A stretch of DNA of 37,883 nt from a virus (lineage: Duplodnaviria > Caudoviricetes). Shown in pieces: positions 15,263 to 37,883 of the stretch. The first letter of the stretch is position 1. Every line of letters starts with the position of its first letter. The translations under genes and the position numbers were made by a program. The notes under the pieces were generated by a model, which saw nothing but the letters and a program-made list of their open reading frames with translations, was not told the DNA's origin and did not search any database. The stretch covers positions 1 to 37,883 of the IMG/VR virus record IMGVR_UViG_3300017909_002923; one strand, given 5' to 3'.

Positions 15263-15288
15263 ATAATTATAGAATGAAAGGACATGTG

Positions 15289-15888
15289 ATGGCTCGTCAA
15301 AAAAGAAAAAGCATTCACTATGTAAATAATGCTGACTTTTCTCAAGCTGTAGTAGAATATGTTGGGACAGTTAACGAAGCTCGTAAAAACAATACAGAAA
15401 TTCCTAAAGTAACTGATTATATAGCGCATTGCTTTTTAAGAATAGCTGAAGGATTATCTCATAAAGCTAACTTTATACGTTACACATATCGTGAAGAAAT
15501 GGTAATGGATGCGGTTGAAAATTGTTTAAAAGCTATTCTTAATTACGATATTGAAGCAGCGACTAGAACTGGTAAACCAAATGCTTTTGCTTACTTTACA
15601 CAAATCACATGGTACGCTTTCCTTCGAAGAATAGCAAAAGAAAAGAAACAGCAAGATGTTAAGATGAAATATTTAACAGCTTCTGGTATAGAAAATTTTA
15701 TAATTAATGAAAATGGTGATGATACGAGCAATCAAGTTGTAGGAGCTTTTGTTGATACATTGAGAGATCGTATAGATAAAGTAAAAGTTTATGATACTGA
15801 AATAAAAGAATATTCTAAAAAAGTAACAAAGAAAAGAAAAAAAAGAGCAGTACATGCTGATTCAGATTTAAGCGAGTTTATGCAATGA
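15289..15888 (+). CDS. gp55: Late-transcription sigma factor
   Basis: HYVNN.DF, IAEGLSHK.NF.RYTYREEMVMDAVENCL and NAFAYFTQI..YAFLRRI.KEKKQ motifs. Start is 15289 (after AAGGA) or 15274. Confidence 0.95.
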   Translation: MARQKRKSIHYVNNADFSQAVVEYVGTVNEARKNNTEIPKVTDYIAHCFLRIAEGLSHKANFIRYTYREEMVMDAVENCLKAILNYDIEAATRTGKPNAFAYFTQITWYAFLRRIAKEKKQQDVKMKYLTASGIENFIINENGDDTSNQVVGAFVDTLRDRIDKVKVYDTEIKEYSKKVTKKRKKRAVHADSDLSEFMQ

Positions 15889-24306: not shown

Positions 24307-26868
24307 ATGTCATTTTATACATCTGTCGTACGTTACGGCAACTCAATGCTTTATCGTGGTTATGACTCTGCTGGTAAAAGAGTATCACGAAAAGATTTTT
24401 TTAAACCTACGTTTTTTACTCAGAGTCGTAAAGATTCTGAGTGGCGTGGTTTGGATGGAACGCCTGTTAGTCCTATACAATTTGAAAACATGCGTGAATC
24501 TAGAAACTGGCTCGAGCAAAACAAAGACGTAGCCGGCCGTCACATCTTCGGAAATCCTAATTATCTTCACCAATATATTACGAGTAAGTTTCCTAATGAA
24601 ATCAAATTTCGTCGTGAACTTATTAACGTAAGTACTATTGATATTGAAACTGATTATGATAATGGATTTCCACATCCGTCCGAAGCTTCACAAAAAATTC
24701 TTGCTATCACAATTAAAAATAGCACCAGTCCTGTATATTGGGTCTGGGGCTATGGTGATTATGACGTAGAAAAAGCTCTTATCAAACCTGTACGATATGT
24801 CAAGTGCGAAGATGAACACCAACTTCTCACAAGATTTCTCGATTTTATTAATGATCCTAATCGAGCTCCGGACGTTATAACTGGCTGGAACACTCGATTT
24901 TTTGATATTCCATATCTCGTTAATCGTACTGCCAAGGTATTAGGTCTTGCCGAAGTCAAAAGATTCTCGCCTTGGGGTATGGTTGACTATCGTAAAGTAA
25001 GACGTCGTATGAAAGAAGAAGATACATACGATATTAAAGGTATACAAACTCTTGATTATCTCGAGCTGTTTCAAAAATTTGGCTATTCTTATGGTGCTCA
25101 AGAATCTTACAAACTCAATCATATTGCTAATGTGGTTCTTGGCGAAAAGAAATTATCTTACGAAGAATCCGGTTCTCTTAAAAATTTATATAAAGACGAC
25201 TTTCAAAAATACATTGACTATAATATGAAAGATGTTGAGCTTGTTGATCGTCTCGAAGAAAAGATGGGATTGATTACTCTTGCTATGACAATAGCTTACA
25301 AAGGTGGTGTTAACTATCAAGACACTTTCGGTGTCACAGCAATATGGGAATCAATTATCTATCGCTACCTTAATAAACAAAAGCGTGTTCCATCTGTTAA
25401 TCAATTAGATAGTAGTCAATATCAAATTATCGGTGCGACCGAAACTTCAAAGAAAAATCCATCACCTGCTTTTAGAGAAGAAGGTAAGTCTCATCAAATT
25501 GCAGGTGGTTACGTAAAAGATCCAAAGCCTGGTGCTTATGACTGGGTTGTATCATTTGATTTAAATTCTCTATATCCAAATATCATTGTTCAAGCAAACA
25601 TATCACCAGAAACTTTAATGCCGAGTACGCAATGGTTAATGCCTGGTGTTAAACATTATCTTAATACAGTTGCGCCAGAAAGCAATCATTCAATCGCTGC
25701 TAATGGAACTACGTATAGCAAAAAAGTTGAAGGTGTCATACCTTCTATTATTACTGAATATTATGATGAACGTGTTTCAGTAAAAAATATGATGCTTGCT
25801 GCTATGAAAGATTATCAAGTTAATAAAACAGTAGAACTTGAAAGAGAAATCAATACACTCGAAAATAGACAAATGGCTATTAAAATTCTACTTAACTCTT
25901 TATATGGCGCATTAGCTAATAAGTATTTTAAATATTTTCATCCAGGTATGGCCGAAGGTGTTACTCTCACTGGTCAAACCACGATTAAGTGGGCAGAGCG
26001 TGCCATGAATGGTGCTATGAATAGTCTTCTTAAAACAGAAAAAGATTATGTTATAGCAATCGATACGGATTCAATTTACGTAAACTTCAATGCTCTCGTC
26101 AAAGAATTAAAACCAAAAGATCCAGTTAAATTCTTAGATAAAATTTGTAAGGAACATTTTGAACCTATGATTGCAAAATCGTATGATGCTTTTTTTACAC
26201 GTATGAATCATCATACTAAACGCATGGAAATGGCAAGAGAAGTTATTGCTGACCGTGGCGTATGGACAGCAAAGAAACGTTATATACTGAATGTTCATAA
26301 CTCTGAAGGCGTACAGTATGCAGAACCAAAACTTAAAATCATGGGTATTGAAGCAATTAAGTCTTCGACACCGGAAGTAGTACGTGATAAATTTAAAGAA
26401 GTATTTAAAATCATTATGGCTGGTGATGAGAAAGAAACACAAGATTTTATATCTCGATTTAAAACAGAATTCAAGCAACTTCCACCAGAACAAGTAGCTT
26501 TTCCACGTGGTACTAATAATATATCTGAGTGGTCTGATCGTAAAATCACATACAAAAAAGGCACACCAATTCATGTGCGTGGCGCTTTACTTTACAATAA
26601 ATATATTAAAGCAATGAAGCTCACAAACAAATACGAAATTATAAACAACGGTGATCGCGTAAAGTTCACCTATTTACGAGTACCAAACAGCATACGTGAA
26701 AATGTAGTATCTTTTCCAGACGTTTTGCCAGAAGAATTCAAACTACATAATTATGTGGATTACGATTTACAATTCGAAAAAACTTTTATTGAACCGCTTA
26801 ATTTTATTTTACATGCTGTTGGCTGGTCTGCAGAAGAACAAGCGAGCCTCGATGCTTTTTTTAATTAA
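24307..26868 (+). CDS. gp43: Family B DNA polymerase
   Basis: Exonuclease DIET, GWN..FFDIPY and YN..DV; polymerase SFDLNSLYP, KILLNSLYG, DTDS and KKRY; C-terminal SLDAFF clamp peptide. Confidence 0.98.
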   Translation: MSFYTSVVRYGNSMLYRGYDSAGKRVSRKDFFKPTFFTQSRKDSEWRGLDGTPVSPIQFENMRESRNWLEQNKDVAGRHIFGNPNYLHQYITSKFPNEIKFRRELINVSTIDIETDYDNGFPHPSEASQKILAITIKNSTSPVYWVWGYGDYDVEKALIKPVRYVKCEDEHQLLTRFLDFINDPNRAPDVITGWNTRFFDIPYLVNRTAKVLGLAEVKRFSPWGMVDYRKVRRRMKEEDTYDIKGIQTLDYLELFQKFGYSYGAQESYKLNHIANVVLGEKKLSYEESGSLKNLYKDDFQKYIDYNMKDVELVDRLEEKMGLITLAMTIAYKGGVNYQDTFGVTAIWESIIYRYLNKQKRVPSVNQLDSSQYQIIGATETSKKNPSPAFREEGKSHQIAGGYVKDPKPGAYDWVVSFDLNSLYPNIIVQANISPETLMPSTQWLMPGVKHYLNTVAPESNHSIAANGTTYSKKVEGVIPSIITEYYDERVSVKNMMLAAMKDYQVNKTVELEREINTLENRQMAIKILLNSLYGALANKYFKYFHPGMAEGVTLTGQTTIKWAERAMNGAMNSLLKTEKDYVIAIDTDSIYVNFNALVKELKPKDPVKFLDKICKEHFEPMIAKSYDAFFTRMNHHTKRMEMAREVIADRGVWTAKKRYILNVHNSEGVQYAEPKLKIMGIEAIKSSTPEVVRDKFKEVFKIIMAGDEKETQDFISRFKTEFKQLPPEQVAFPRGTNNISEWSDRKITYKKGTPIHVRGALLYNKYIKAMKLTNKYEIINNGDRVKFTYLRVPNSIRENVVSFPDVLPEEFKLHNYVDYDLQFEKTFIEPLNFILHAVGWSAEEQASLDAFFN

Positions 26869-26905: not shown

Positions 26906-27328
26906 ATGAGTAAAGATTGGGTAAATGATATAAATGAAATGCATTCTAAGTTCGGTGTCCACGAATGGGTTGATCACGAACTTATGAATAGAACTGACTG
27001 GCAAAAGCTTAATAAATTTTTACAATTTAGATTGAATTTTTTAAAAGAAGAATTAAATGAAACATGTAATGCTTTTGATAATAAAGATAGTGAGGAGATT
27101 GTAGATGGTCTTATTGACTTATGCGTTGTTGCTATTGGTACTCTTGATGCCTTCGGAGTGGATGCTTATAAAGCATGGGACGAAGTTCACAGCGCCAATA
27201 TGGCAAAAGAACGAGGAATAAAAGAATCACGACCTAATCCGCTTGGATTACCTGACTTAATTAAACCTGAAGGATGGACAGGGCCAAACCACAATGATAA
27301 CACCGGAAATATCCCTAACGCTCTTTAA
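26906..27328 (+). CDS. MazG-like / all-alpha NTP pyrophosphohydrolase (candidate dCTPase/dUTPase)
   Basis: FLKEELNE..EEIVDGLIDL acidic helices, EVHSANMAK and DLIKPEGW..P. Confidence 0.8.
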   Translation: MSKDWVNDINEMHSKFGVHEWVDHELMNRTDWQKLNKFLQFRLNFLKEELNETCNAFDNKDSEEIVDGLIDLCVVAIGTLDAFGVDAYKAWDEVHSANMAKERGIKESRPNPLGLPDLIKPEGWTGPNHNDNTGNIPNAL

Positions 27329-28232
27329 GGGAATATATGATAACAAAACGAGTATGCGCGTTGATCTTCATGATTTCAACGCGTTTGAACGCGTTCTATA
27401 TCAATTGGCCGAAAAACCAAGAGCGAGCAAAAAAGATGCTGAGCTTATGTCACCAGCAATATACGAACCAGATACTTTACGTAGAAACGATAACGTAATT
27501 GAATGGGCTTGTTGGTGCGCAGTTGATGTTGATGATTATAAGTTTAATGGAGAGTTAGAACATGATCTGGTTAATAGGTTTAATGATTATCGTTTTATTT
27601 GTTATAGTACTGCAAGTAGCACGATTGATCTACCGAAGTTTCGCCTTGTCTTCCCTCTTACGAACTCAGTACGGAATGGAGAAATTAAAGCTTTCTGGTA
27701 TGCGTTACAAACTGAACTCGGCGACCTCGGAGACAAACAAACTAAGGATTTGTCACGAATGTATTACATCCCTGGAAAATACGCTGGTGCTTACAACTTT
27801 ATATTCAGTCATCATGACGGTAACGCTATTGATCCTTATCAACTAATTAATAAACATCCAATGGCAGAAAAAACTGCTACGTCTTTTATTGATCGACTAC
27901 CAGAAGCTATGCAAAAAGAAATTATTGAGTATCGTAAATCTAAACTTGAAAACACAGATATAAACTGGACGTCATATCGAGATTGTCCGTTCTTTCCAAG
28001 ACAACTTGAAAACGAGTATAGAGCTATCAGTAATACAGGCTGGTATCATAAGATGTATCAAATCATGGTCGCTCTTGCCGGCAACGCAATTAAAAAAGAA
28101 TATCCAATTAGTGCTCAAGAAATATCTAAAATGTGCAGAGAGCTTGATATGGAAACTGGTAATTGGTATGCTAATCGACCAATGGATAAAGAAGCAGATC
28201 GGGCGTTAGAATATGTCTACAAAAACGTATAA
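27294..28232 (+). CDS. Archaeo-eukaryotic primase (PrimPol/VirE-N-like) superfamily protein
   Basis: AVDVDD (DxD), YSTAS..PKFRLVFPL and DKQTKDLSRMYYIP, plus a helical C-terminal domain. Confidence 0.7.
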   Translation: MITPEISLTLFKGIYDNKTSMRVDLHDFNAFERVLYQLAEKPRASKKDAELMSPAIYEPDTLRRNDNVIEWACWCAVDVDDYKFNGELEHDLVNRFNDYRFICYSTASSTIDLPKFRLVFPLTNSVRNGEIKAFWYALQTELGDLGDKQTKDLSRMYYIPGKYAGAYNFIFSHHDGNAIDPYQLINKHPMAEKTATSFIDRLPEAMQKEIIEYRKSKLENTDINWTSYRDCPFFPRQLENEYRAISNTGWYHKMYQIMVALAGNAIKKEYPISAQEISKMCRELDMETGNWYANRPMDKEADRALEYVYKNV

Positions 28233-28959
28233 CTCTTTGGGAATAGGCTGTAGCTTTACAAATCGAAAATATAAGTTTCGCGAATATGAAAGAAAATTAT
28301 ACGGGAAAGAACGAATACCTTGGGAAACATGGGATCATTTAGTTGCAAGTTATTTTGAATGGAATCATTTAAATATAGGTGAATCTGGAAGAGGTTTAGA
28401 TTGGATGGTAGATACTATACACTCGTTTGATACTTCTCTCTACAATACTTTAATCGTAGGAGGAACTACTTGGGATAGATTTACGACAGCATACTATAAC
28501 CCAGCAACTCTTAGGTATTCTCATATTATTATGAGAGGTGACAGACAAGCTTTTCTTCCTATAGATTATGAACCTAATGTTGAATACGCTATAGCGCACG
28601 CTTTAAGTAATATTATATCATTAATACATCATTGCATAATAAATGATAAAAAATTAATTTACTTACAAGTGTTACCTCCATTTGATCCCTATCAATATAA
28701 ACATATTAAAAATTTAAAACACTCCGAAAGATATATGTTAAGAAACAAAATGTTTGAAACTATAGAAAAGTACCGCAATCATCCTAATATTAATATATTA
28801 GGCTGGCCTTTCTTTAAAATATTAGGAGGTTCTGATTTTTGGATTTGGAATGATCTTAGAATTAGTATAAGCGAAACTGATAGACACCCTAATCAAGCGG
28901 GGCATATTTTTATAGCTAATCGTGTCACAGATTTACTAGAAAAAAATACAAATAAGTGA
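28213..28959 (+). CDS. SGNH/GDSL hydrolase-like protein
   Basis: GCSFT (block I), NIGESGRG (block II) and DRHPNQAGH (block V). Confidence 0.6.
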   Translation: MSTKTYNSLGIGCSFTNRKYKFREYERKLYGKERIPWETWDHLVASYFEWNHLNIGESGRGLDWMVDTIHSFDTSLYNTLIVGGTTWDRFTTAYYNPATLRYSHIIMRGDRQAFLPIDYEPNVEYAIAHALSNIISLIHHCIINDKKLIYLQVLPPFDPYQYKHIKNLKHSERYMLRNKMFETIEKYRNHPNINILGWPFFKILGGSDFWIWNDLRISISETDRHPNQAGHIFIANRVTDLLEKNTNK

Positions 28960-28968
28960 AAAAAATAG

Positions 28969-28997
28969 TTTACAATCTCCTGAAACTGTGGTATAAT
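28969..28997 (+). promoter_or_regulatory. Early/middle promoter
   Basis: TTTACA-N17 (ending TGTGG)-TATAAT. Confidence 0.8.
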
Positions 28998-29025
28998 AAT
29001 ATTATAACAATGAGGAGAAAATATA

Positions 29026-29502
29026 ATGTATAACTTTAGCGAAACAGTTTTAGAATCTTATTGGATTGAAAAATATGGTAGTGTGGTAAAAGCCGTTTTA
29101 AAAAAACAAAATAAGCTTATTTCAGACACAATCGAAGAATTATATGCTATTTATACAAATGGTATCGTTAAAAATGCTGTTGGTTTTGATATTCAAAGAC
29201 CTAATAATATATTAGATGAGTTAAAATACACTGGCTCTATTCAAGGAAAATCCGTTTTACGTGTTGGTGGTCTAACTAACAAAGAAGGTAAATCGGATTA
29301 CATTGTTATTATTGATGGTGTTAATAACAGAACTTTTAGAATTCCTACTCATATCTTTTTTGCATTCGCAGATTTAAAAACTTCGAAAACCAGCACTTCG
29401 ACAACTACAGAATTTCACTGGTCTGTTTCATATAACAAAAATGATAATGTGAAGCGAGAAAATACTAAATTACTTTTACAATATGAGGTAACGAATGAGT
29501 AA
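29026..29502 (+). CDS. Hypothetical protein, possible PD-(D/E)xK nuclease
   Basis: Strong GAGGAG SD; E..E helix followed by GFD....DELK, compatible with a restriction-endonuclease-like active site. Confidence 0.4.
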   Translation: MYNFSETVLESYWIEKYGSVVKAVLKKQNKLISDTIEELYAIYTNGIVKNAVGFDIQRPNNILDELKYTGSIQGKSVLRVGGLTNKEGKSDYIVIIDGVNNRTFRIPTHIFFAFADLKTSKTSTSTTTEFHWSVSYNKNDNVKRENTKLLLQYEVTNE

Positions 29503-29851
29503 AGAATCACTTAAAATATTGCAGCGCGCAGCTGAAATACAAAACAAAAAAGGCAATGACTATCAGAATCCTAATTCTCGTGTACGTCAAGCCGATTATT
29601 ATCCACGTGGCTGTGCCACTCTTCTCGATACTATGGCTGCTAAAGTTTTGCGTATGCAGTCTGTACTTGAAGCTATGGAACTTGATCCTGACTATAATCC
29701 AAACTTCGAATCACTCGAAGATTCATGTATTGATATTATTAATTACGCTTCATTCTTTGCTGCGTATATGAATCATGGCATTGACGGTCAAGATCCTAAT
29801 CGTGATTTTCTTAATCGACCAAAAAAGGTGGTAACAGATGAAAGTTGCTGA
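29495..29851 (+). CDS. Nucleotide-modification-associated helical protein (Nmad1/DUF1599-like)
   Basis: KKGNDY..KVLR..FESLEDSCIDIINYASF pattern; overlaps the start of the hydroxymethylase gene. Confidence 0.65.
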   Translation: MSKESLKILQRAAEIQNKKGNDYQNPNSRVRQADYYPRGCATLLDTMAAKVLRMQSVLEAMELDPDYNPNFESLEDSCIDIINYASFFAAYMNHGIDGQDPNRDFLNRPKKVVTDESC

Positions 29852-30533
29852 TATTCGTAATTATTTTATTGAGGAGTTAAAAAATGAAAACTTTACAGTG
29901 GACAGAACTGGACAAAAAACTATTGAGCTTATCGGCGCTAGTTTTAATGCCGACGAGAAAGCGATCTTTGGTGAACCGAATGAAGAGTATATTGATGCTG
30001 AATTAACTTGGTATCTTAGTGGATCTTCAAACGTTAACGATATATATCCAGATAAAGATGCTCCGGTTGCCTGGCAGTATTCTGCAAATAAGCATGGCGA
30101 AATCAATTCAAACTATGGCCGGCTTATTTTTGATGACATGTTTTATCGCCAGTATGACAATGCTGTTGCTGAACTTGTAACAAATATGGATTCTCGCCGT
30201 GCAACTATGATATATACTAGACCAAGTATATGGATGGAATATAACGATAATGGTAAAAACGATTTTATTTGCACTAATGCTGTTACTTATTATCTTCGCG
30301 GTGGCGCCATACACGCAGTGGTACAAATGCGCTCAAACGATGTCGTGTACGGATACAAAAATGACTATGCTTGGCAGCTTTATGTTTTAGAACAATTTGT
30401 AAAAGATTATAATGATGCATACTTATCAAGCACTGCAGATGCTGACTATCGTGCAGAAATGAAAGTTGGTACTATCACATGGCAGGTACAAAATCTCCAC
30501 GTATATGAAAGGCACTTTCACCTTGTCAAATAA
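29838..30533 (+). CDS. gp42: dCMP hydroxymethylase (thymidylate synthase fold)
   Basis: GEINSNYG, catalytic DFICTN, MRSNDVVYGYKNDYAWQ (Asp at the pyrimidine-specificity position, as in T4 gp42, rather than the Asn of ThyA) and LHVYERHF. Confidence 0.9.
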   Translation: MKVADIRNYFIEELKNENFTVDRTGQKTIELIGASFNADEKAIFGEPNEEYIDAELTWYLSGSSNVNDIYPDKDAPVAWQYSANKHGEINSNYGRLIFDDMFYRQYDNAVAELVTNMDSRRATMIYTRPSIWMEYNDNGKNDFICTNAVTYYLRGGAIHAVVQMRSNDVVYGYKNDYAWQLYVLEQFVKDYNDAYLSSTADADYRAEMKVGTITWQVQNLHVYERHFHLVK

Positions 30534-30969
30534 ATGGGATTTAAGATTTATTGATTTAGCTAGACACGTTTCTTCTTGGTCTAAAGATCCATCTACTCAA
30601 ATAGGTGCGGTTGCCATTGATGACAATAGACAAATATTGTCTGTAGGTTATAATGGTTTTCCACGTGGAATCGAAGATAGTCCGGATAAATATTTAAATA
30701 GGCCGATTAAATATAAACATGTAGTTCATGCAGAAATGAACGTAATATACAATGCCACATATAATGGCGTATCTTTAAAAGGTAGTACTCTATATGTTTA
30801 TGGTTTACCTATTTGTTCAGAATGCGCAAAAGGTATTATACAAGTAGGAATAAAAAGAATAGTTATGCCTTCTCAAGAAATACCAGATCATTGGACCGAA
30901 TCTTGGGAGTTAACTCAAAATTTATTTAACGAAGCAAAATTAGTTTGGGAGTTTATAAATGTACAATAA
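30523..30969 (+). CDS. cd: dCMP deaminase
   Basis: SKDPSTQIGAV, GYNGFPRG, HAEMN and PICSECAK zinc motifs; probable TTG start at 30523. Confidence 0.92.
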   Translation: MSNKWDLRFIDLARHVSSWSKDPSTQIGAVAIDDNRQILSVGYNGFPRGIEDSPDKYLNRPIKYKHVVHAEMNVIYNATYNGVSLKGSTLYVYGLPICSECAKGIIQVGIKRIVMPSQEIPDHWTESWELTQNLFNEAKLVWEFINVQ

Positions 30970-31138: not shown

Positions 31139-31711
31139 ATGATTGAGTATTGGTGGCCAACCGAAATCGGTTTTTATGATAATCCAGAACACGACAAATT
31201 AAATTTAGTCGATTATTGTTATGAAATACAAAGTAAAACTGAAAGCGGTGGAAAAGATTGGATATCTTCTGACACCTATAATACCAGCAATAGAAAATTT
31301 CAACCTCATAAAGATGAAAAATTTAAAAAACTTGATGGCTGGATAAAAGAACAAATAAAAAATTATATAACAGAAACAAATTTAGCATACGAAATAACTG
31401 AAGAACAAACAGATTCTTGGTTTAACATATATAAGAAAGGTGATTTTCAAGAAATACATGATCATCTTTCTTATGTGTTATCTGCTGTATATTTTTTAAA
31501 GTCTAATCCGGAGTTCAGTCCTTTAACATTCAGGCCAAATTTTTTAGATCATTTAGCGATTGGTAAAACACAAGGATTATGTACTAATTGTAATGTAAAC
31601 TATTCTGCAACACCAGGTAGATTAGTTGTTTTTCGAAGTTATCTACCACATTGCGTAGAAAAACATAAAGATAATGAAGATAGAATTTCAATAGCATATA
31701 ATATGAGATAA
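31139..31711 (+). CDS. Putative 2OG-Fe(II) oxygenase
   Basis: SWFNIYKKGDFQEIHDH, LSAVYFL, G.LVVF.SYLPHCV and RISIAYN double-stranded beta-helix motifs. Confidence 0.85.
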   Translation: MIEYWWPTEIGFYDNPEHDKLNLVDYCYEIQSKTESGGKDWISSDTYNTSNRKFQPHKDEKFKKLDGWIKEQIKNYITETNLAYEITEEQTDSWFNIYKKGDFQEIHDHLSYVLSAVYFLKSNPEFSPLTFRPNFLDHLAIGKTQGLCTNCNVNYSATPGRLVVFRSYLPHCVEKHKDNEDRISIAYNMR

Positions 31712-32097
31712 TGAATAAAGTTTTAGTTATAGGACATAGTCCATCATCAAAAGAATATTGTCCAAAGAAAGGCAATCCATCGATTAATCGTTTAAATCGT
31801 TGGCTCGATGATTGTGGTATAAGAATATACAGCTATAGCAATGCGTGTGCACACCACGCCACTTCTCTTAAAAAAGCTAATATTGATGAAACATATATAC
31901 ATAATATTACTCAACAGTATAATAAAATATTAACATTAGGTAAAGAAGTAGAACAATTATTCAATAAGATGGGTATCGAGCATTACGCACTCCCGCACCC
32001 ATCTCCACTCAATAGAAAGTTAAACGATAAAGCGTACGAATTAAAAATCATAAATAACATCAAAACGTATTTACAAGTAGACTCATCTGTGGTATAA
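31711..32097 (+). CDS. Minimal uracil-DNA glycosylase superfamily protein
   Basis: VLVIGHSPS (motif A), ILTLG..V and LPHPSPLNR (motif B). Confidence 0.7.
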   Translation: MNKVLVIGHSPSSKEYCPKKGNPSINRLNRWLDDCGIRIYSYSNACAHHATSLKKANIDETYIHNITQQYNKILTLGKEVEQLFNKMGIEHYALPHPSPLNRKLNDKAYELKIINNIKTYLQVDSSVV

Positions 32098-32098
32098 T
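32070..32098 (+). promoter_or_regulatory. Early/middle promoter of the glycosyltransferase operon
   Basis: TTTACA-N17 (ending TGTGG)-TATAAT, then an AAGGAG SD. Confidence 0.8.
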
Positions 32099-32118
32099 AG
32101 ACGAGTAAGGAGAGAAAT

Positions 32119-33360
32119 ATGAAAACCATTATATTGCTCGGTCGTGGCACCGAGGGCTGTGGCGTTACTCAATGTTCTATACAAATGCAAAAAGTAACTG
32201 GAGCCACAATACTTTCAGCAAACGATAAAAAATGGGGTAGAGCCAAAGGACTTGACATTAACCAAACAGAAATGTCTGTAGGTAAGCAATGGCAAGAAAT
32301 GGCAAACATAGTTAATGAGCACGATCTTTGTATTGTGTATTCTATTCCATCGAAATCTCATCCACAAGATTGTCAAGATAATTTTGTTTCTCTTCTTGAC
32401 GCAATCAATATTCGCAAAGCATTTATCAATGTCGATCATAAATCGGCATCAATTGCTCGTAATGCAAACCTCGTAGAGGTGTGTAAAAAAATGGATGTGA
32501 TTATGACTCATAGTCTTGAAAATGATTTTTCTAAATTTATGAAGAAAAATAAAATAACCGTACCTTTAAAAAAGATGGGACTTGGTTTTGATTATGATGG
32601 ACATAGAGCAAAGTATTGGTTGCCTATTGAAGAAACACAAGAGCAATATGTTCGTTGGATTGGCCGCACAGCTATGTGGAAAGGCCCATCTCTTATGATT
32701 GATTTTCATGAAGAATCGCTCATGGACAATGGATTTATTACAGTGCTTGAAGGTTTAGAAGCAAGCATTCAATATCCTCTTGTATTATATCGTGATAATA
32801 AGAATGAAAATCCTACAGATCGTCGTAAGGTTGTAAATTACTTTCGGCCAGAAAAACAACACGGCGAGACAGAAAAGTTTAAAGAAGATATGTACGGTAC
32901 AGAAAAAACTGAACAAGGCGCGTATCTTTATCCACAATATACAAATCATGATTGCATGCAAAGACTTGCTGAATCTGCGTTTGGCTCAGATTTGTATCAC
33001 TTGAAAGCAGAAACTTATGGTAACAATATAGAAAATTGTCATGCTGAAATCATAGCATCTGGCGCTATTCCTATCTTCCATAAACACTTTTGTGATCATG
33101 TAATACATAAAGAACAGGGCAAACCAGTATCCCTTTGTCAAAATACTGGTACAATTGGTCTTGATTATTCTAATTTTAAAGAATGTCAAGAAGTCATGAT
33201 CAAATTAAAAAATGATCCTGCTATGAGAGATGATTGGCGTGAAATGGCTTTTGAATTTTGGAAACAACACTCAGACGGTGAGATGGTTGTAAATGAAATT
33301 ATGGAATTAGCCACAAGCGACGAACACCAACCACAAGGACTAGAGGAATTTTTCGGATGA
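32119..33360 (+). CDS. a-gt: DNA alpha-glycosyltransferase, homologue of T4 alpha-glucosyltransferase (GT-B fold)
   Basis: RGTEGCGVT, DH..S..RN, DVI..HS, RWIGRTAMWKG..M.DFHE, EGLE, E..H.E..A.G.IP.F.K and RE.A.EF...H.D are collinear with T4 AGT motifs as recalled from memory. Confidence 0.88.
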   Translation: MKTIILLGRGTEGCGVTQCSIQMQKVTGATILSANDKKWGRAKGLDINQTEMSVGKQWQEMANIVNEHDLCIVYSIPSKSHPQDCQDNFVSLLDAINIRKAFINVDHKSASIARNANLVEVCKKMDVIMTHSLENDFSKFMKKNKITVPLKKMGLGFDYDGHRAKYWLPIEETQEQYVRWIGRTAMWKGPSLMIDFHEESLMDNGFITVLEGLEASIQYPLVLYRDNKNENPTDRRKVVNYFRPEKQHGETEKFKEDMYGTEKTEQGAYLYPQYTNHDCMQRLAESAFGSDLYHLKAETYGNNIENCHAEIIASGAIPIFHKHFCDHVIHKEQGKPVSLCQNTGTIGLDYSNFKECQEVMIKLKNDPAMRDDWREMAFEFWKQHSDGEMVVNEIMELATSDEHQPQGLEEFFG

Positions 33361-34304
33361 CACATGTTTTTATTACCGGCATAGCCGGAATGATAGGGTA
33401 CCATACTGCTATCAAATTAAAAGAACAAGGATACTCGGTTGAGGGTATCGATAATTTTAACGACTACTATGACGTAGAATTAAAAAATGCTCGTAGTAAA
33501 TTACTTTCTGATAAACAAATAGCTGTACGAAATATTGATATTTGCTCACCTGGCGAATACTATGAACATATACAAGCTGCTGATGTGGTACTACACTTAG
33601 CTGCATATGCAAATCCAAGACATGCTATGGATGAACCACAACTTTACATTGATACAAATATTACTGGTACACAAAAACTAGTTGATATATGTGAAGGTTT
33701 AAATACGCCTGTTGTATATGCTTCAAGCTCATGTGTTATGCATGGCCAAACTTTGCCTTGGACAGAACACGATAACCCAGGCCACCAAAACAATCCTTAT
33801 GGCTGGTCTAAAAGAGTAAATGAATCTCAATTTATATATTCTAAAATAGCTCGCACTATCGGTCTTCGTTTCTTTACAGTGTATGGTCCTTATGGCCGGC
33901 CAGACATGGCTTTGTTTAAATTTACAGACGCTATTGTAAATGGCACGCCACTTACACTTTATAATTACGGTGATATGAAACGTGATTTTACTTATGTTGA
34001 TGATATCGTTCAAGGCATTGAACTTGTGATTAAACAAATACTTGAAAGCAATGAACCACTTGACGAGATCTACAATATTGGTTATGGTGAGCAAGTTCAA
34101 CTGATGGACTTTGTAGAAGAAATAGAAAAGAACTTAGGACGTAAAGGTACATATGATAAAGTGCCACCGCATCCTGCTGATATGCCAGCCACGTGGTCAG
34201 ATACATCTAAACTACAAAAGCTTGGATATAAACCAACTACTCCTATTTCTGAAGGTGTAGAAAAATTTGTTACTTGGTATAAGGAGTACTATAATGTCAA
34301 TTAA
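33357..34304 (+). CDS. NAD-dependent epimerase, UDP-glucuronate 4-epimerase-like
   Basis: GIAGMIG, GIDNFNDYYDVELK.AR, YASSS, YGWSK and GLRFFTVYGPYGRPDMALFKFT..RDFTYVDDIV, the signature of the UDP-GlcA epimerase subfamily. Confidence 0.85.
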   Translation: MTHVFITGIAGMIGYHTAIKLKEQGYSVEGIDNFNDYYDVELKNARSKLLSDKQIAVRNIDICSPGEYYEHIQAADVVLHLAAYANPRHAMDEPQLYIDTNITGTQKLVDICEGLNTPVVYASSSCVMHGQTLPWTEHDNPGHQNNPYGWSKRVNESQFIYSKIARTIGLRFFTVYGPYGRPDMALFKFTDAIVNGTPLTLYNYGDMKRDFTYVDDIVQGIELVIKQILESNEPLDEIYNIGYGEQVQLMDFVEEIEKNLGRKGTYDKVPPHPADMPATWSDTSKLQKLGYKPTTPISEGVEKFVTWYKEYYNVN

Positions 34305-35115
34305 TATTTTAATTGTTGGACACGGATATGTAGGAAAAGCGGTAGATCATGGCTTCTCTACTTCTCAAGTTACAAAGTATGTTGTTGATCCTCATTATGG
34401 AAATGACATCGATGATTTTAAAGGAGTAAGGATGCATGCAGCATTTGTCTGTGTGCCTACTCCGTTTGGTGAAATGGGCGTAATTGATTCCTCGATTGTA
34501 GAAGATGTAGTTAATCGACTAGAAACTTTTGCTTGTCCTATCATAATCAAGTCGACTGTAACTCCAAATATAGTAGAAGACTTATCAAAGAAAAATTCTG
34601 ACGTTGTATATAATCCAGAATTTTTAACAGAGAAAAATCATCTTGACGATTTTATTAATCCACCTATGCATATATTCGGTGGTAACCCAATGATTACACG
34701 TCAAGTACAAGATCTTTATGAAAAATATAGTCAGTGTAAACCATGTCCAGTTATGCATATGACAGCAATGGAAGCTTCATTTGTAAAATACGGAATTAAT
34801 TGTTTTCTTGCTACTAAAGTTTTATGGTTTAATCAATTTAAAGATTTAATTGATATAACAGATTCAAAATATAATGTGATTGTAAATGCTATTGGTTCTG
34901 ATCCGCGTATTGGTCATTCACATACACAAGTTCCTGGACCTGATGGACGTAAAGGTTATGGTGGAGCATGTTTTCCAAAAGATACAAATGCTTTTAACAC
35001 ATATGCTCATGGCAAATTTTCTGTTCTTGGAGATGTTATTAAAGCCAATAATACATATAGAAGTCAATATGAATTAGATGAACGTGAAAAAGAACAGAAA
35101 GTAAGTTATGCCTAA
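34294..35115 (+). CDS. ugd: UDP-glucose 6-dehydrogenase (short form)
   Basis: GHGYVG, FVCVPTP, IKSTV.P, YNPEFL, K...N.FLA.K, DPRIG and catalytic GYGGACFPKD; ATG 34294 follows AAGGAG. Confidence 0.88.
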   Translation: MSINILIVGHGYVGKAVDHGFSTSQVTKYVVDPHYGNDIDDFKGVRMHAAFVCVPTPFGEMGVIDSSIVEDVVNRLETFACPIIIKSTVTPNIVEDLSKKNSDVVYNPEFLTEKNHLDDFINPPMHIFGGNPMITRQVQDLYEKYSQCKPCPVMHMTAMEASFVKYGINCFLATKVLWFNQFKDLIDITDSKYNVIVNAIGSDPRIGHSHTQVPGPDGRKGYGGACFPKDTNAFNTYAHGKFSVLGDVIKANNTYRSQYELDEREKEQKVSYA

Positions 35116-36307
35116 TTATGCGAGTATAGTACCACTCATTGGTGGTGAAACAATCGCCATGCAAAATGTGTTTGGTAAAAGACCGGAGTATATTTTAAGT
35201 TATGAACCGTTTCAAACAAATGATAATCACCTTAATGAATATTATAAAAACGAAGTACCCTATCATCTTATCGGAGACGGTGGGGTACCTGATGTACCTC
35301 ATGTCGATGTTATTAATACCGTATGCCCTTGTGCTGGGCTTAGCAGTCTTAGTACTACAAGCAGTTCTGATGCTGCTATTAACGATTGGATGCGTACCAC
35401 TGCGAATCATGTTTTGGGTACACTCTCTCCTCAAGTATTCTGGGGCGAAAACGCACCAAGACTCGCTTCAGCAATGGGACGACCGATTGTCGAAGACCTT
35501 AGGAGAATCGGGGAAACGTTTGGATATACTTTTTCTATATATAAGACGAAATCTATTCTTCATGGATTAGGACAAGTTAGAGATCGAGCATTTTATTTTT
35601 TCTGGAAAGGTGAAAAAACTCCAAAATTCGAATATATAAAACGTGAACATGAAAAGATTGAGGATACGATTCGTTCCGTGAAACGCGATCCAAGTGATCC
35701 AATGTCAATCCTTACAAACTCAAGTGTTCCATCAGAAAATCCATATTATCGTTTTGTGCTCAAAGAGCTCGAAAATGGCATAACTCATTCGCAGTTTCAA
35801 GATAAGATCAGTAAGAGTTATGACATATTACATTACATTGAAGATCAAGGCATAAGTTATAAAGAAGTTTCAAAATGGATGACTCAACATGGGTTTGACA
35901 AGCAAGCGACTCGTTCAATGACTATGTATGAGAAACTAAAATCTGGTGGAAACGTAATGAGACGCGGTGTTAATATACCGAAGAATTATATTGGTGCTTT
36001 TGTTGGAGCGTATCCTACTAGCCTTACACATCCAGACGAGGACCGTTACTTGACAATTCGTGAATGTTTATCAATCATGAAATTACCAGAAGATTTTAAT
36101 CTTCAAGGCGGACTTAAAAATATAAATCACATATGTCAGAATGTTCCAGTGACAACTGCTCAGGATATGGCAGATCATGTTCTTAAATTTGTAGATGGTA
36201 GATTAGATAATCAACTTATTGAAACAAAATATCTCGTACAAGACAATAAATCAAAAACACTTGACTATGAAAAAGAGAGTGTACAACTTGACGCATTTAT
36301 GGTATAA
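35108..36307 (+). CDS. Atypical C5-cytosine DNA methyltransferase-like protein
   Basis: Motif IV CPCAGLS, motif VI GENAP, motif VIII GQVRDRAF, motif IX RYLTIREC..LPEDF, motif X CQNVP; motif I is degenerate (IVPLIGG). Confidence 0.75.
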   Translation: MPNYASIVPLIGGETIAMQNVFGKRPEYILSYEPFQTNDNHLNEYYKNEVPYHLIGDGGVPDVPHVDVINTVCPCAGLSSLSTTSSSDAAINDWMRTTANHVLGTLSPQVFWGENAPRLASAMGRPIVEDLRRIGETFGYTFSIYKTKSILHGLGQVRDRAFYFFWKGEKTPKFEYIKREHEKIEDTIRSVKRDPSDPMSILTNSSVPSENPYYRFVLKELENGITHSQFQDKISKSYDILHYIEDQGISYKEVSKWMTQHGFDKQATRSMTMYEKLKSGGNVMRRGVNIPKNYIGAFVGAYPTSLTHPDEDRYLTIRECLSIMKLPEDFNLQGGLKNINHICQNVPVTTAQDMADHVLKFVDGRLDNQLIETKYLVQDNKSKTLDYEKESVQLDAFMV

Positions 36308-36308
36308 T
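36280..36308 (+). promoter_or_regulatory. Early/middle promoter for uvsX
   Basis: TGTACA-N17 (ending TATGG)-TATAAT. Confidence 0.65.
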
Positions 36309-37370: not shown

Positions 37371-37659
37371 AAAAGAACATGAACACTACGAAATGATTCC
37401 AGGCGATGGTCATGATCAAGCTTGGAATATAAGAATTTTGCATGGTCAATTTGTAGAAACTGTGATAGAATTTGGTGCTATTTCTTTTAATGAATCTCAA
37501 CAAGGAACTATGAATTTTAATTTCGAAATAATATCAAGCCCGGATTCAGAATTAACTACAGAAAATGTAGAACTTCAAGAAGAAGCAGCACAAATATTAG
37601 AAAATGTTTTAGAGCAAGCGATAGAAGGCGGCTATATAGAATCGACAGTAAAAAAATGA
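37360..37659 (+). CDS. Small acidic protein in the gp40 (head vertex assembly chaperone) position
   Basis: ATG 37360 after GAGG; follows uvsX as gp40 does in T4. Assignment by synteny only. Confidence 0.45.
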   Translation: MANRKEHEHYEMIPGDGHDQAWNIRILHGQFVETVIEFGAISFNESQQGTMNFNFEIISSPDSELTTENVELQEEAAQILENVLEQAIEGGYIESTVKK

Positions 37660-37883
37660 AAATATTAATATTCGGTCTTCCGGGTAGTGGTAAGACAACA
37701 TTAGCAAAACCGTTTGCAGAATTAATTGGTGGAGTCCATATTAATGCAGATGAGGTTCGTAAAAGATATGATGATTGGGATTTTACTCCAGAAGGACGTA
37801 TAAGACAAGCACAACGAATGCGTCATTTATCTGATGGAGTAGTAATGGCTGGTAAGGTAGCAGTTGCAGATTTTGTATGTCCT
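37656..37883 (+). CDS. P-loop kinase, adenylylsulfate (APS) kinase-like (3' end outside the window)
   Basis: MKILIFGLPGSGKTTLA..NADEVR..DWDFTPEGRIRQAQRM..VADFVCP parallels CysC GLSGSGKST..DGDNVR..F..EDR..N.RR..FISP. Confidence 0.7.
   Translation, partial: MKILIFGLPGSGKTTLAKPFAELIGGVHINADEVRKRYDDWDFTPEGRIRQAQRMRHLSDGVVMAGKVAVADFVCP

Follow-up and report, generated by a model that had tools for sequence, protein, structure and literature searches.

What sugar would a phage put on its DNA if a homologue of the T4 alpha-glucosyltransferase (AGT) shared overlapping reading frames with enzymes for making a sugar acid? This question is raised by the IMG/VR record IMGVR_UViG_3300017909_002923 of a tailed virus (Duplodnaviria; Caudoviricetes), a linear record of 37,883 bases, 21% complete and of 35% G+C, which was analysed in full and is called the window below. 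It contains replication genes of the T4-like type, and near-identical DNA (at least half of the sampled words) was present in 18 sequencing runs labelled as seawater, marine, estuary, aquatic viral or sediment. Downstream of a dCMP hydroxymethylase lies a cassette with the AGT homologue, an epimerase-like short-chain dehydrogenase/reductase (SDR) and a UDP-glucose 6-dehydrogenase (Ugd); it was tiled by contigs from three DNA runs with no listed indels, and two RNA runs share 6% of the window words. The original prediction was that the phage makes its own acidic donor and sets alpha-galacturonic acid (GalA) or glucuronic acid (GlcA) on 5-hydroxymethylcytosine (hmC). Overall, our analysis indicates that hmC is very probably glycosylated in the DNA of this phage. 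We lean somewhat towards the sugar being a hexuronate of some kind, and alpha-galacturonosyl-hmC is our best single guess for the base, with about an even chance of being right.

The cassette and its enzymes

The transferase scored well above the cut-off of the AGT profile PF11440 (108.7 bits against 25, E 4e-31) and matched T4 AGT itself at E 2e-41 with about 29% identity. With its AlphaFold model (pLDDT 95.6, from 68 sequences), Foldseek ranks 1-9 were all T4 AGT (TM 0.82-0.88, E 1e-33 to 1e-31; TM 0.87 to 1xv5), the next family following at a TM of about 0.55 and E 4e-10. As modelled, the enzyme has the AGT-type glycosyltransferase B (GT-B) fold, and R183, K188, E305, E310 and D106-H107 vary little or not at all among 68 homologues.

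The hydroxymethylase agrees with T4 gp42 in the motifs NDFICTN, RSND and KNDYAWQ, and RSND..ND recurs in 82 of 83 relatives, the remaining one having RSCD. It has Asp at position N177 and an acidic residue at L143, and Asp169 is retained; acidic residues at those positions of thymidylate synthase homologues are tied to dCMP use and non-methyl products in the available part of PMC13326640. A 5-hydroxycytosine route, as with the 5-hydroxy-dCMP synthase of the RB69 gp48 type, was rejected because D169N is absent. The gene ends at 30533, 1586 nt before the AGT open reading frame (ORF), in line with the distance of about 1.6 kb first given.

For the short Ugd, which most likely starts at ATG 34294 after AGGAG, the top PDB matches are UDP-glucose dehydrogenases; a UDP-GlcNAc dehydrogenase is the less likely reading, as no such label is among the 26 PDB matches. 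The protein has the NAD-binding GxGxxG, KST, NPEFL, a K..N helix and GGxC, motifs whose catalytic roles we assume, and both KST with NPEFL and GxGG(A/T)C are present in 95/95 relatives.

The start of the SDR overlaps the end of the transferase by 4 nt (ATGA). Its top PDB matches are 5u4q (E 2e-69), 6zl6 (E 1e-38) and MoeE5 (E 4e-25), with WbgU, WbpP, GalE and UXS behind. We take 5u4q, which is listed as a dehydratase, and 6zl6 to be UDP-glucuronate epimerases; the Tyr-to-Phe change of 6zlj and the T178/R185 spacing agree with the Bacillus enzyme. MoeE5 is named a UDP-GlcA epimerase in the available part of PMC7984243. Residues T174, R181, Y148/K152, R88 and S124/S125 of the SDR correspond to T178, R185, Y149, R88 and T126/S127 of Bacillus cereus BcUGAepi, so that in residues as well as in structural matches the SDR resembles BcUGAepi and MoeE5, and T174, R181 and an S-S-S-C patch are retained in all 56 SDRs that stand beside AGTs of the window's clade (window-type AGTs). 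With most of the carboxylate-binding residues kept, the SDR is probably a UDP-glucuronate 4-epimerase. Profile, PDB and motif matches thus uphold the enzymes named in the original prediction, the SDR being epimerase-like only and the Ugd short.

The promoter motif TKTACA-N14-TGN-TATAAT occurs in the window 8 times, against 0.15 expected. One promoter had been proposed to drive three overlapping ORFs, AGT, SDR and Ugd; the overlaps and the motif site ahead of the transferase support this, but the unit should be extended by a fourth ORF, which overlaps that of Ugd and resembles C5-cytosine methyltransferases (MTases), because the next copy of the motif comes only at 36280. The four genes form one predicted transcription unit (Table 1).

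Such an arrangement outlines a possible route to a modified base. The gp42-like enzyme, assigned by family, would make 5-hydroxymethyl-dCMP, to be incorporated at replication; the short Ugd, judging by its motifs, would oxidise UDP-glucose to UDP-GlcA, which the host may also supply; and the SDR, judging by the closest structures and the residues kept, would epimerise UDP-GlcA to UDP-GalA. The AGT homologue would then place the sugar on hmC of duplex DNA in a retaining reaction, co-inheritance with the epimerase suggesting the donor. Only a galacto-configured donor would call for a dedicated epimerase, and for this reason we prefer GalA to GlcA. The likely role of the base would be to shield the DNA from host restriction.

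Table 1. Positions of the cassette, of nearby genes and promoter-like sites in the window, and of related genes in two other loci
Feature	Position	Strand	Basis or remark
MazG/PRA-PH-like nucleotide pyrophosphohydrolase, candidate dCTPase	26906..27328	+	PF01503 E 1e-11; phrog_671
dCMP hydroxymethylase, T4 gp42-like	29838..30533	+	PDB 1b49 (T4 gp42) E 5.6e-68
dCMP deaminase	30466..30969	+	PF00383 E 4e-19
2OG-Fe(II) oxygenase	31139..31711	+	PF13759; between the two modules
UDG-superfamily protein	31711..32097	+	PF03167 E 9e-6; upstream of transferase often, not always
Promoter-like site TTTACA-17-TATAAT with TG	32070..32098	+	one of 8 motif copies
T4 AGT-family DNA glycosyltransferase, 413 aa, C-terminal tail GLEEFFG	32119..33360	+	PF11440, T4 AGT match, fold
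UDP-glucuronate 4-epimerase-like SDR, derived subfamily (loop ANPRH)	33357..34304	+	PDB matches, motifs, trees
Short UDP-glucose 6-dehydrogenase-like protein, 273 aa	34294..35115	+	PF03721 and PF00984 only
C5-cytosine methyltransferase-like protein, tail QLDAFMV	35108..36307	+	PF00145 E 7e-14
Next promoter-like site, upstream of uvsX	36280..36308	+	marks likely end of unit
C5-MTase-like family members	L083:5363-6580; L084:7989-9206		

Linkage of the transferase to the epimerase

For comparison, 79 loci of close AGT relatives were drawn from the best 80 of 89; near-copies are among them, so that the loci do not count as independent. Within this set an SDR follows the transferase in 79/79 loci, four of them with a gap of 730-750 nt, and Ugd comes next in 65 of the 71 loci with room for it; the hydroxymethylase is present in 40 of 42 loci with room and the MTase-like gene in 51 of 52. 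The co-occurrence of the genes, put forward earlier as a check, is thus borne out. Where Ugd had moved, two genomes (G001 and G002) were of sufficient length to look for it elsewhere, and both still contained it; one 20-kb fragment was without Ugd.

The partner kept so strictly is the epimerase and not Ugd, which argues against an acidic sugar in the form of GlcA, a further-modified uronate or a mixture. We give this alternative a small chance, bearing in mind that an epimerase leaves both donors present and that, in the available part of Pyle et al. (bioRxiv 10.1101/2023.12.21.572611), GT91 gave hexuronic acid (HexA)-modified hmC without its epimerase.

The motif A(Y/F)ANPRH was found in 56/56 SDRs beside window-type AGTs and in 0/25 from loci without hmC genes. 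In an SDR tree of 58 rows, made by a quick search, one branch (SH-aLRT 100) separates 38 window-type and 2 second-clade rows from 15 non-AGT and 3 second-clade rows; the groups are interleaved in the Ugd and MTase trees. Motif and topology mark off the SDRs that accompany window-type AGTs as a subfamily, which occurs nowhere but next to AGT-family genes. In L100, L102, L105 and L109, which have another gene in place of the transferase, the type of SDR changed and Ugd stayed at 72-73% identity. The SDR usually switched along with the replaced transferase, the window-type SDR being kept in 2/5 dereplicated second-clade rows. In more distant AGT clades the partner is a 252-aa epimerase in which the Thr and Arg are likewise retained, an SDR that looks GalE-like by its motifs, or no epimerase at all. 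We consider this pairing suggestive, not proof, because physical linkage could give part of the pattern and kin share labels.

A different, unannotated protein of 363 aa (phrog_14998), with an internal GLDDFFG motif, occupies the AGT slot in L102 (3950-5041) and also in L100, L105, L106 and L109. No PDB match was obtained for it, and the one hint of a GT, PF13524 on 12% of one cluster, is weak. In isolate C48C1, a 31%-identical homologue (50998-52032) follows TET/JBP and precedes UDP-galactopyranose mutase. The 363-aa protein is a candidate for a new DNA glycosyltransferase family.

Observations in favour of other sugars

Several observations weigh against an acidic sugar on hmC or against parts of the route outlined above, and most of them are brought together here. 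The first concerns reverse linkage. Among the best 80 of 191 Ugd loci, 24 have a window-type AGT, 4 another AGT clade and 5 the unrelated 363-aa gene, 9 end short of the slot, and 38 are without hmC genes; an SDR is present in 36 of these 38, the stretch from primase to uvsX is covered by 27, and a TAGT-like match occurs in 10. Genome G005 (91% complete), where one of the scans covered 104 of the 123 listed ORFs, carries the Ugd/SDR pair together with GT25, GT8 and Kdo genes. It lacks a recognised DNA transferase, and AGT, hydroxymethylase, TAGT and TET were all absent from the matches. Likewise, isolate C48C1 has the pair without AGT and hydroxymethylase. Uronates could also be consumed by a glycan cluster found separately in G002, a complete relative. 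That cluster (L158:541-7209) begins with an SDR whose motifs we take to be like those of UDP-sulfoquinovose synthase, followed by several GT-like genes. In addition, a second AGT clade occurs both with the pair (L247-L256) and without it (L257-L264), at 66-69% identity between the sets, and the QHDHK and EFTHLE motifs are identical in the two. Adjacency alone therefore proves little, since the Ugd/SDR pair is common in these phages, and the unchanged QHDHK of the second clade indicates that adjacency of AGT and pair can be positional. The original prediction would have been harmed by Ugd and epimerase genes unlinked to the transferase: such loci do exist, the pair standing without hmC genes in 38 of 80, yet the SDR subfamily occurs only beside AGT-family genes.

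Such loci speak for T4-like alpha-glucosyl-hmC, made from UDP-glucose, with Ugd and the epimerase as mere neighbours feeding virion or host-surface glycans. The GT25, GT8 and Kdo genes of G005 and the own GT cluster of G002 point the same way, as do the three different transferases that hold the slot ahead of the pair and the LPS (lipopolysaccharide)-related interpretation of such genes in the available part of the pelagimyophage paper. Still, we regard this reading as unlikely, for window-type AGTs are accompanied by an SDR subfamily of their own that was not met at any locus lacking an AGT, and the genes overlap and sit between two DNA-acting genes. Moreover, Val occupies the T4 His114 position in the window-type clade, His114 of T4 being, by analogy, presumably a contact of the donor sugar. 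Our literature search found no paper on the pocket contacts of T4 AGT.

A basic donor-pocket residue near C6 had been proposed as a sign of an acidic donor, and here the transferase gave no help: in a survey of 140 AGT sequences, no residue tracks the uronate partner. K108 (T4 S117) and N306 (T4 Y307) were rejected as markers of an acidic donor, both occurring also in clades without a uronate epimerase; the transferase of the complete genome G009 has N306, yet this genome has no Ugd or SDR. As for Ugd, Pfam found the NAD-binding and central domains and no C-terminal UDP-binding domain; comparably short forms are known in other phages.

The SDR, in turn, differs from BcUGAepi and MoeE5 in two places. 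The position of Ser128 in BcUGAepi is Cys (C126), not the Glu of decarboxylases, and the 85-88 loop reads A-N-P-R in place of the canonical P/A-G-V-R (P85-G86-V87 becoming A-N-P) in 56/56 window-type SDRs. With ANPRH for AGVRH and Cys for Ser128, the substrate of this SDR may differ. It is thus conceivable that a derived SDR acts on UDP-Glc/UDP-Gal or on the N-acetyl pair, that the base is alpha-galactosyl-hmC or N-acetylhexosaminyl (HexNAc)-hmC, and that Ugd is a passenger. The changed loop would suit such a neutral donor, as would the looser partnership of Ugd, which is not adjacent in 6/71 loci and was exchanged between backgrounds; a sister AGT clade is paired with an SDR that is GalE-like by motifs, and epimerase-dependent hexose (Hex) and HexNAc products are known from the available part of bioRxiv 10.1101/2023.12.21.572611. 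On balance we think a neutral donor improbable, given that T174, R181 and the S-S-S-C patch are kept throughout the 56 window-type SDRs, that GalE and WbpP are far weaker matches, and that the relocated Ugd is still in the genome in G001 and G002.

As a result, the claim that the phage makes an acidic donor and sets alpha-GalA or GlcA on hmC stands in part: the enzyme assignments, the linkage and the AGT-specific SDR subfamily favour it, and the pair without hmC genes in 38/80 loci and the missing tracking residue do not.

Signs of modified cytosine and the methyltransferase-like gene

Site frequencies were compared in 42 of 97 long loci, kept after removal of near-copies. In 7 kin loci without hmC genes, CCGG, GGCC and AGCT are avoided (median observed/expected ratios, O/E, of 0.54, 0.55 and 0.58), whereas in 32 loci with the hydroxymethylase they are not (1.42, 1.10 and 0.99); GATC and GCGC are equal between loci with and without hmC genes. 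The whole-genome CCGG values are 1.22 in G002 and 0.25 in G005. This contrast, between groups that differ in hosts and ancestry, supports modified cytosine and says nothing on the sugar. The window itself is low in GGCC (25 vs 33.1) and CTAG (39 vs 60.1), which belongs with the adverse observations above. CCGG is enriched in its coding sequence, with 40 sites vs 27.3 +/- 4.6 in synonymous shuffles (1/200 as high), and has an O/E above 1 in 27/32 hmC loci; it is possibly the target of the MTase-like enzyme or of the transferase.

In the MTase-like protein the catalytic PC, ENV-like and QxRxR motifs of C5-methyltransferases are represented by PCAGLS, GENAP and QVRDR, and its relatives keep PCAGLS and GENAP (99/99). 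Motif I is atypical, reading PLIGG in 99/99; we take the canonical motif I, which binds S-adenosylmethionine in C5-methyltransferases, to be FxGxG. Among 50,697 phage records, the family (motif I PLIGG/PLVGG) was met only in S-TIM5-type cyanophages and in Pseudoalteromonas phage XG4. S-TIM5 also encodes an AGT homologue, and XG4 has a hydroxymethylase-like gene with two adjoining GT-like genes. In the S-TIM5 thymidylate synthase (L084:4769-5605), Asp was seen by eye at the N177-equivalent (RSNDMATGVPLD), which would point to a dCMP substrate.

Could the MTase-like enzyme make or edit the acceptor on the DNA, so that the sugar is found at a subset of sites or another C5 adduct is formed? Its gene accompanies the hydroxymethylase and the GT whichever GT is present, and where the family occurs among phage records it does so with AGT-like or other GT-like genes beside a hydroxymethylase; the atypical motif I and the enrichment of CCGG fit as well. 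Furthermore, the T4 gp1-type deoxynucleoside monophosphate (dNMP) kinase (PF21448) was found in 0/5 relatives searched, two of them complete hmC-type genomes, a further point against the replicative route as outlined. Another kinase family or a host kinase could possibly replace it. On the other hand, the hydroxymethylase is a close homologue of T4 gp42, and TET (PF12851) was not found in the complete G002; we give partial hmC a small chance. An acidic sugar would fit with this alternative, which concerns the extent of modification. A possible stand-in for the dNMP kinase is a small, APS-kinase-like P-loop kinase that is cut by the window end (37656-37883).

Comparison with known systems

The original prediction knew of no characterised natural base of this kind. 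Hexuronosyl-hmC does have a precedent: according to the available part of Pyle et al. (bioRxiv 10.1101/2023.12.21.572611), E. coli with genes of other phages, from contigs 57 (epimerase and GT) and 91 (GT alone), yielded HexA-modified hmC of 433 Da. The subclass II phage GTs described there depend on an adjacent epimerase, just as the GT stands beside an epimerase in our 79 loci, and the predicted product, HexA-hmC of 433 Da, is the same. In subclass II, however, a C5-methyltransferase and TET make hmC on DNA, whereas the window has a thymidylate synthase homologue and a predicted replicative route; subclass II GTs have the GT-A fold (GT57 being the example) and those with GT-B all belong to subclass III, whereas the window GT is an AGT-family GT-B; and the window, unlike subclass II clusters, encodes Ugd. 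Their product was seen in E. coli, not in virions. Since the wider search of the same study noted ThyS-linked GT-B clusters with epimerases, the window clade may be in its tables.

With the glucosyl-hmC system of the T-even phages the window shares a gp42-type hydroxymethylase, a dCMP deaminase and an AGT of the same fold. It differs in the genes linked to its AGT (for an epimerase, a short Ugd and a C5-MTase-like protein), in a donor that is probably not glucose, and in the dNMP kinase, of which no T4-type form was found in the 5 relatives searched. The arabinosyl- and galactosyl-5-hydroxycytosine clusters of RB69, DLP3 and RL38J1, as described in the available part of PMC13326640, likewise encode enzymes for the sugar donor next to a DNA GT and a thymidylate synthase homologue. 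Their D169N hydroxylases lead to a sugar directly on the C5 oxygen, whereas the window enzyme keeps the Asp, and GT family and sugar differ. By analogy, the window system would work in the manner of the T-even phages and supply its own donor, as the arabinose and subclass II clusters do; it is a full member of neither.

Escape from nucleases such as GmrSD, which had also been suggested, is doubtful and speculative, because BrxU, a nuclease of the GmrSD family, cut every cytosine modification tested, including arabinose and disaccharides, in the available part of PMC13390438. Our literature search, with most subscription journals outside its reach, brought up no account of hexuronosyl-hmC from virion DNA and none of the operon, and the available part of the MetaGPA paper had no passage on these families.

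Other features of the window and its relatives

The 2OG-Fe(II) oxygenase gene is a variable insert outside the module, present in 0/79 related loci and bypassed by a contig of run X1; it was rejected as a TET since it matches PF13759 and not PF12851. Two ORFs of 248 and 158 aa at 28213-29502 had no Pfam, PHROG or NCBIfam match and no tblastn match in the 79 AGT loci, and are likewise variable inserts. Similar C-terminal tails end the DNA polymerase (SLDAFFN, 26839-26868), the AGT (GLEEFFG, 33331-33360) and the MTase-like protein (QLDAFMV, 36278-36307). Presumably they resemble the clamp-binding tails of T4; the pattern is matched by 3/43 window ORFs, and a gp55-like ORF (15274-15888) ends in SDLSEFMQ. 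AGT homologues at 52-55% identity (L173-L178, L237-L243) have only large unrelated genes around them, and nothing nearby matched a hydroxymethylase, an SDR or an MTase. A pf16 match proved to be a pectinase and was rejected.

Significance

It is tempting to suppose that a widespread marine T4-like lineage carries alpha-galacturonosyl-hmC at most cytosines, set by an AGT-family enzyme and adding negative charge to the DNA, and that transferase-epimerase cassettes for GalA, Gal, Glc and other sugars are swapped in one slot as a glycan switch against modification-dependent defences. We are aware that this scenario is tentative and less likely than not. Since the class of chemistry and its logic are already known, its value lies in a testable enzyme set rather than in surprise, and with the E. 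coli platform published, testing would be cheap. If true, a sugar-acid base that we found described only from reconstitution in E. coli would have a natural source coupled to replication. The T4 AGT family would not be glucose-only, and an AGT able to place a carboxylate on hmC could be used directly as a reagent for labelling. Finally, the swapped transferase-epimerase pairs would offer a natural panel for matching each sugar to the type IV nucleases or glycosylases that it escapes.

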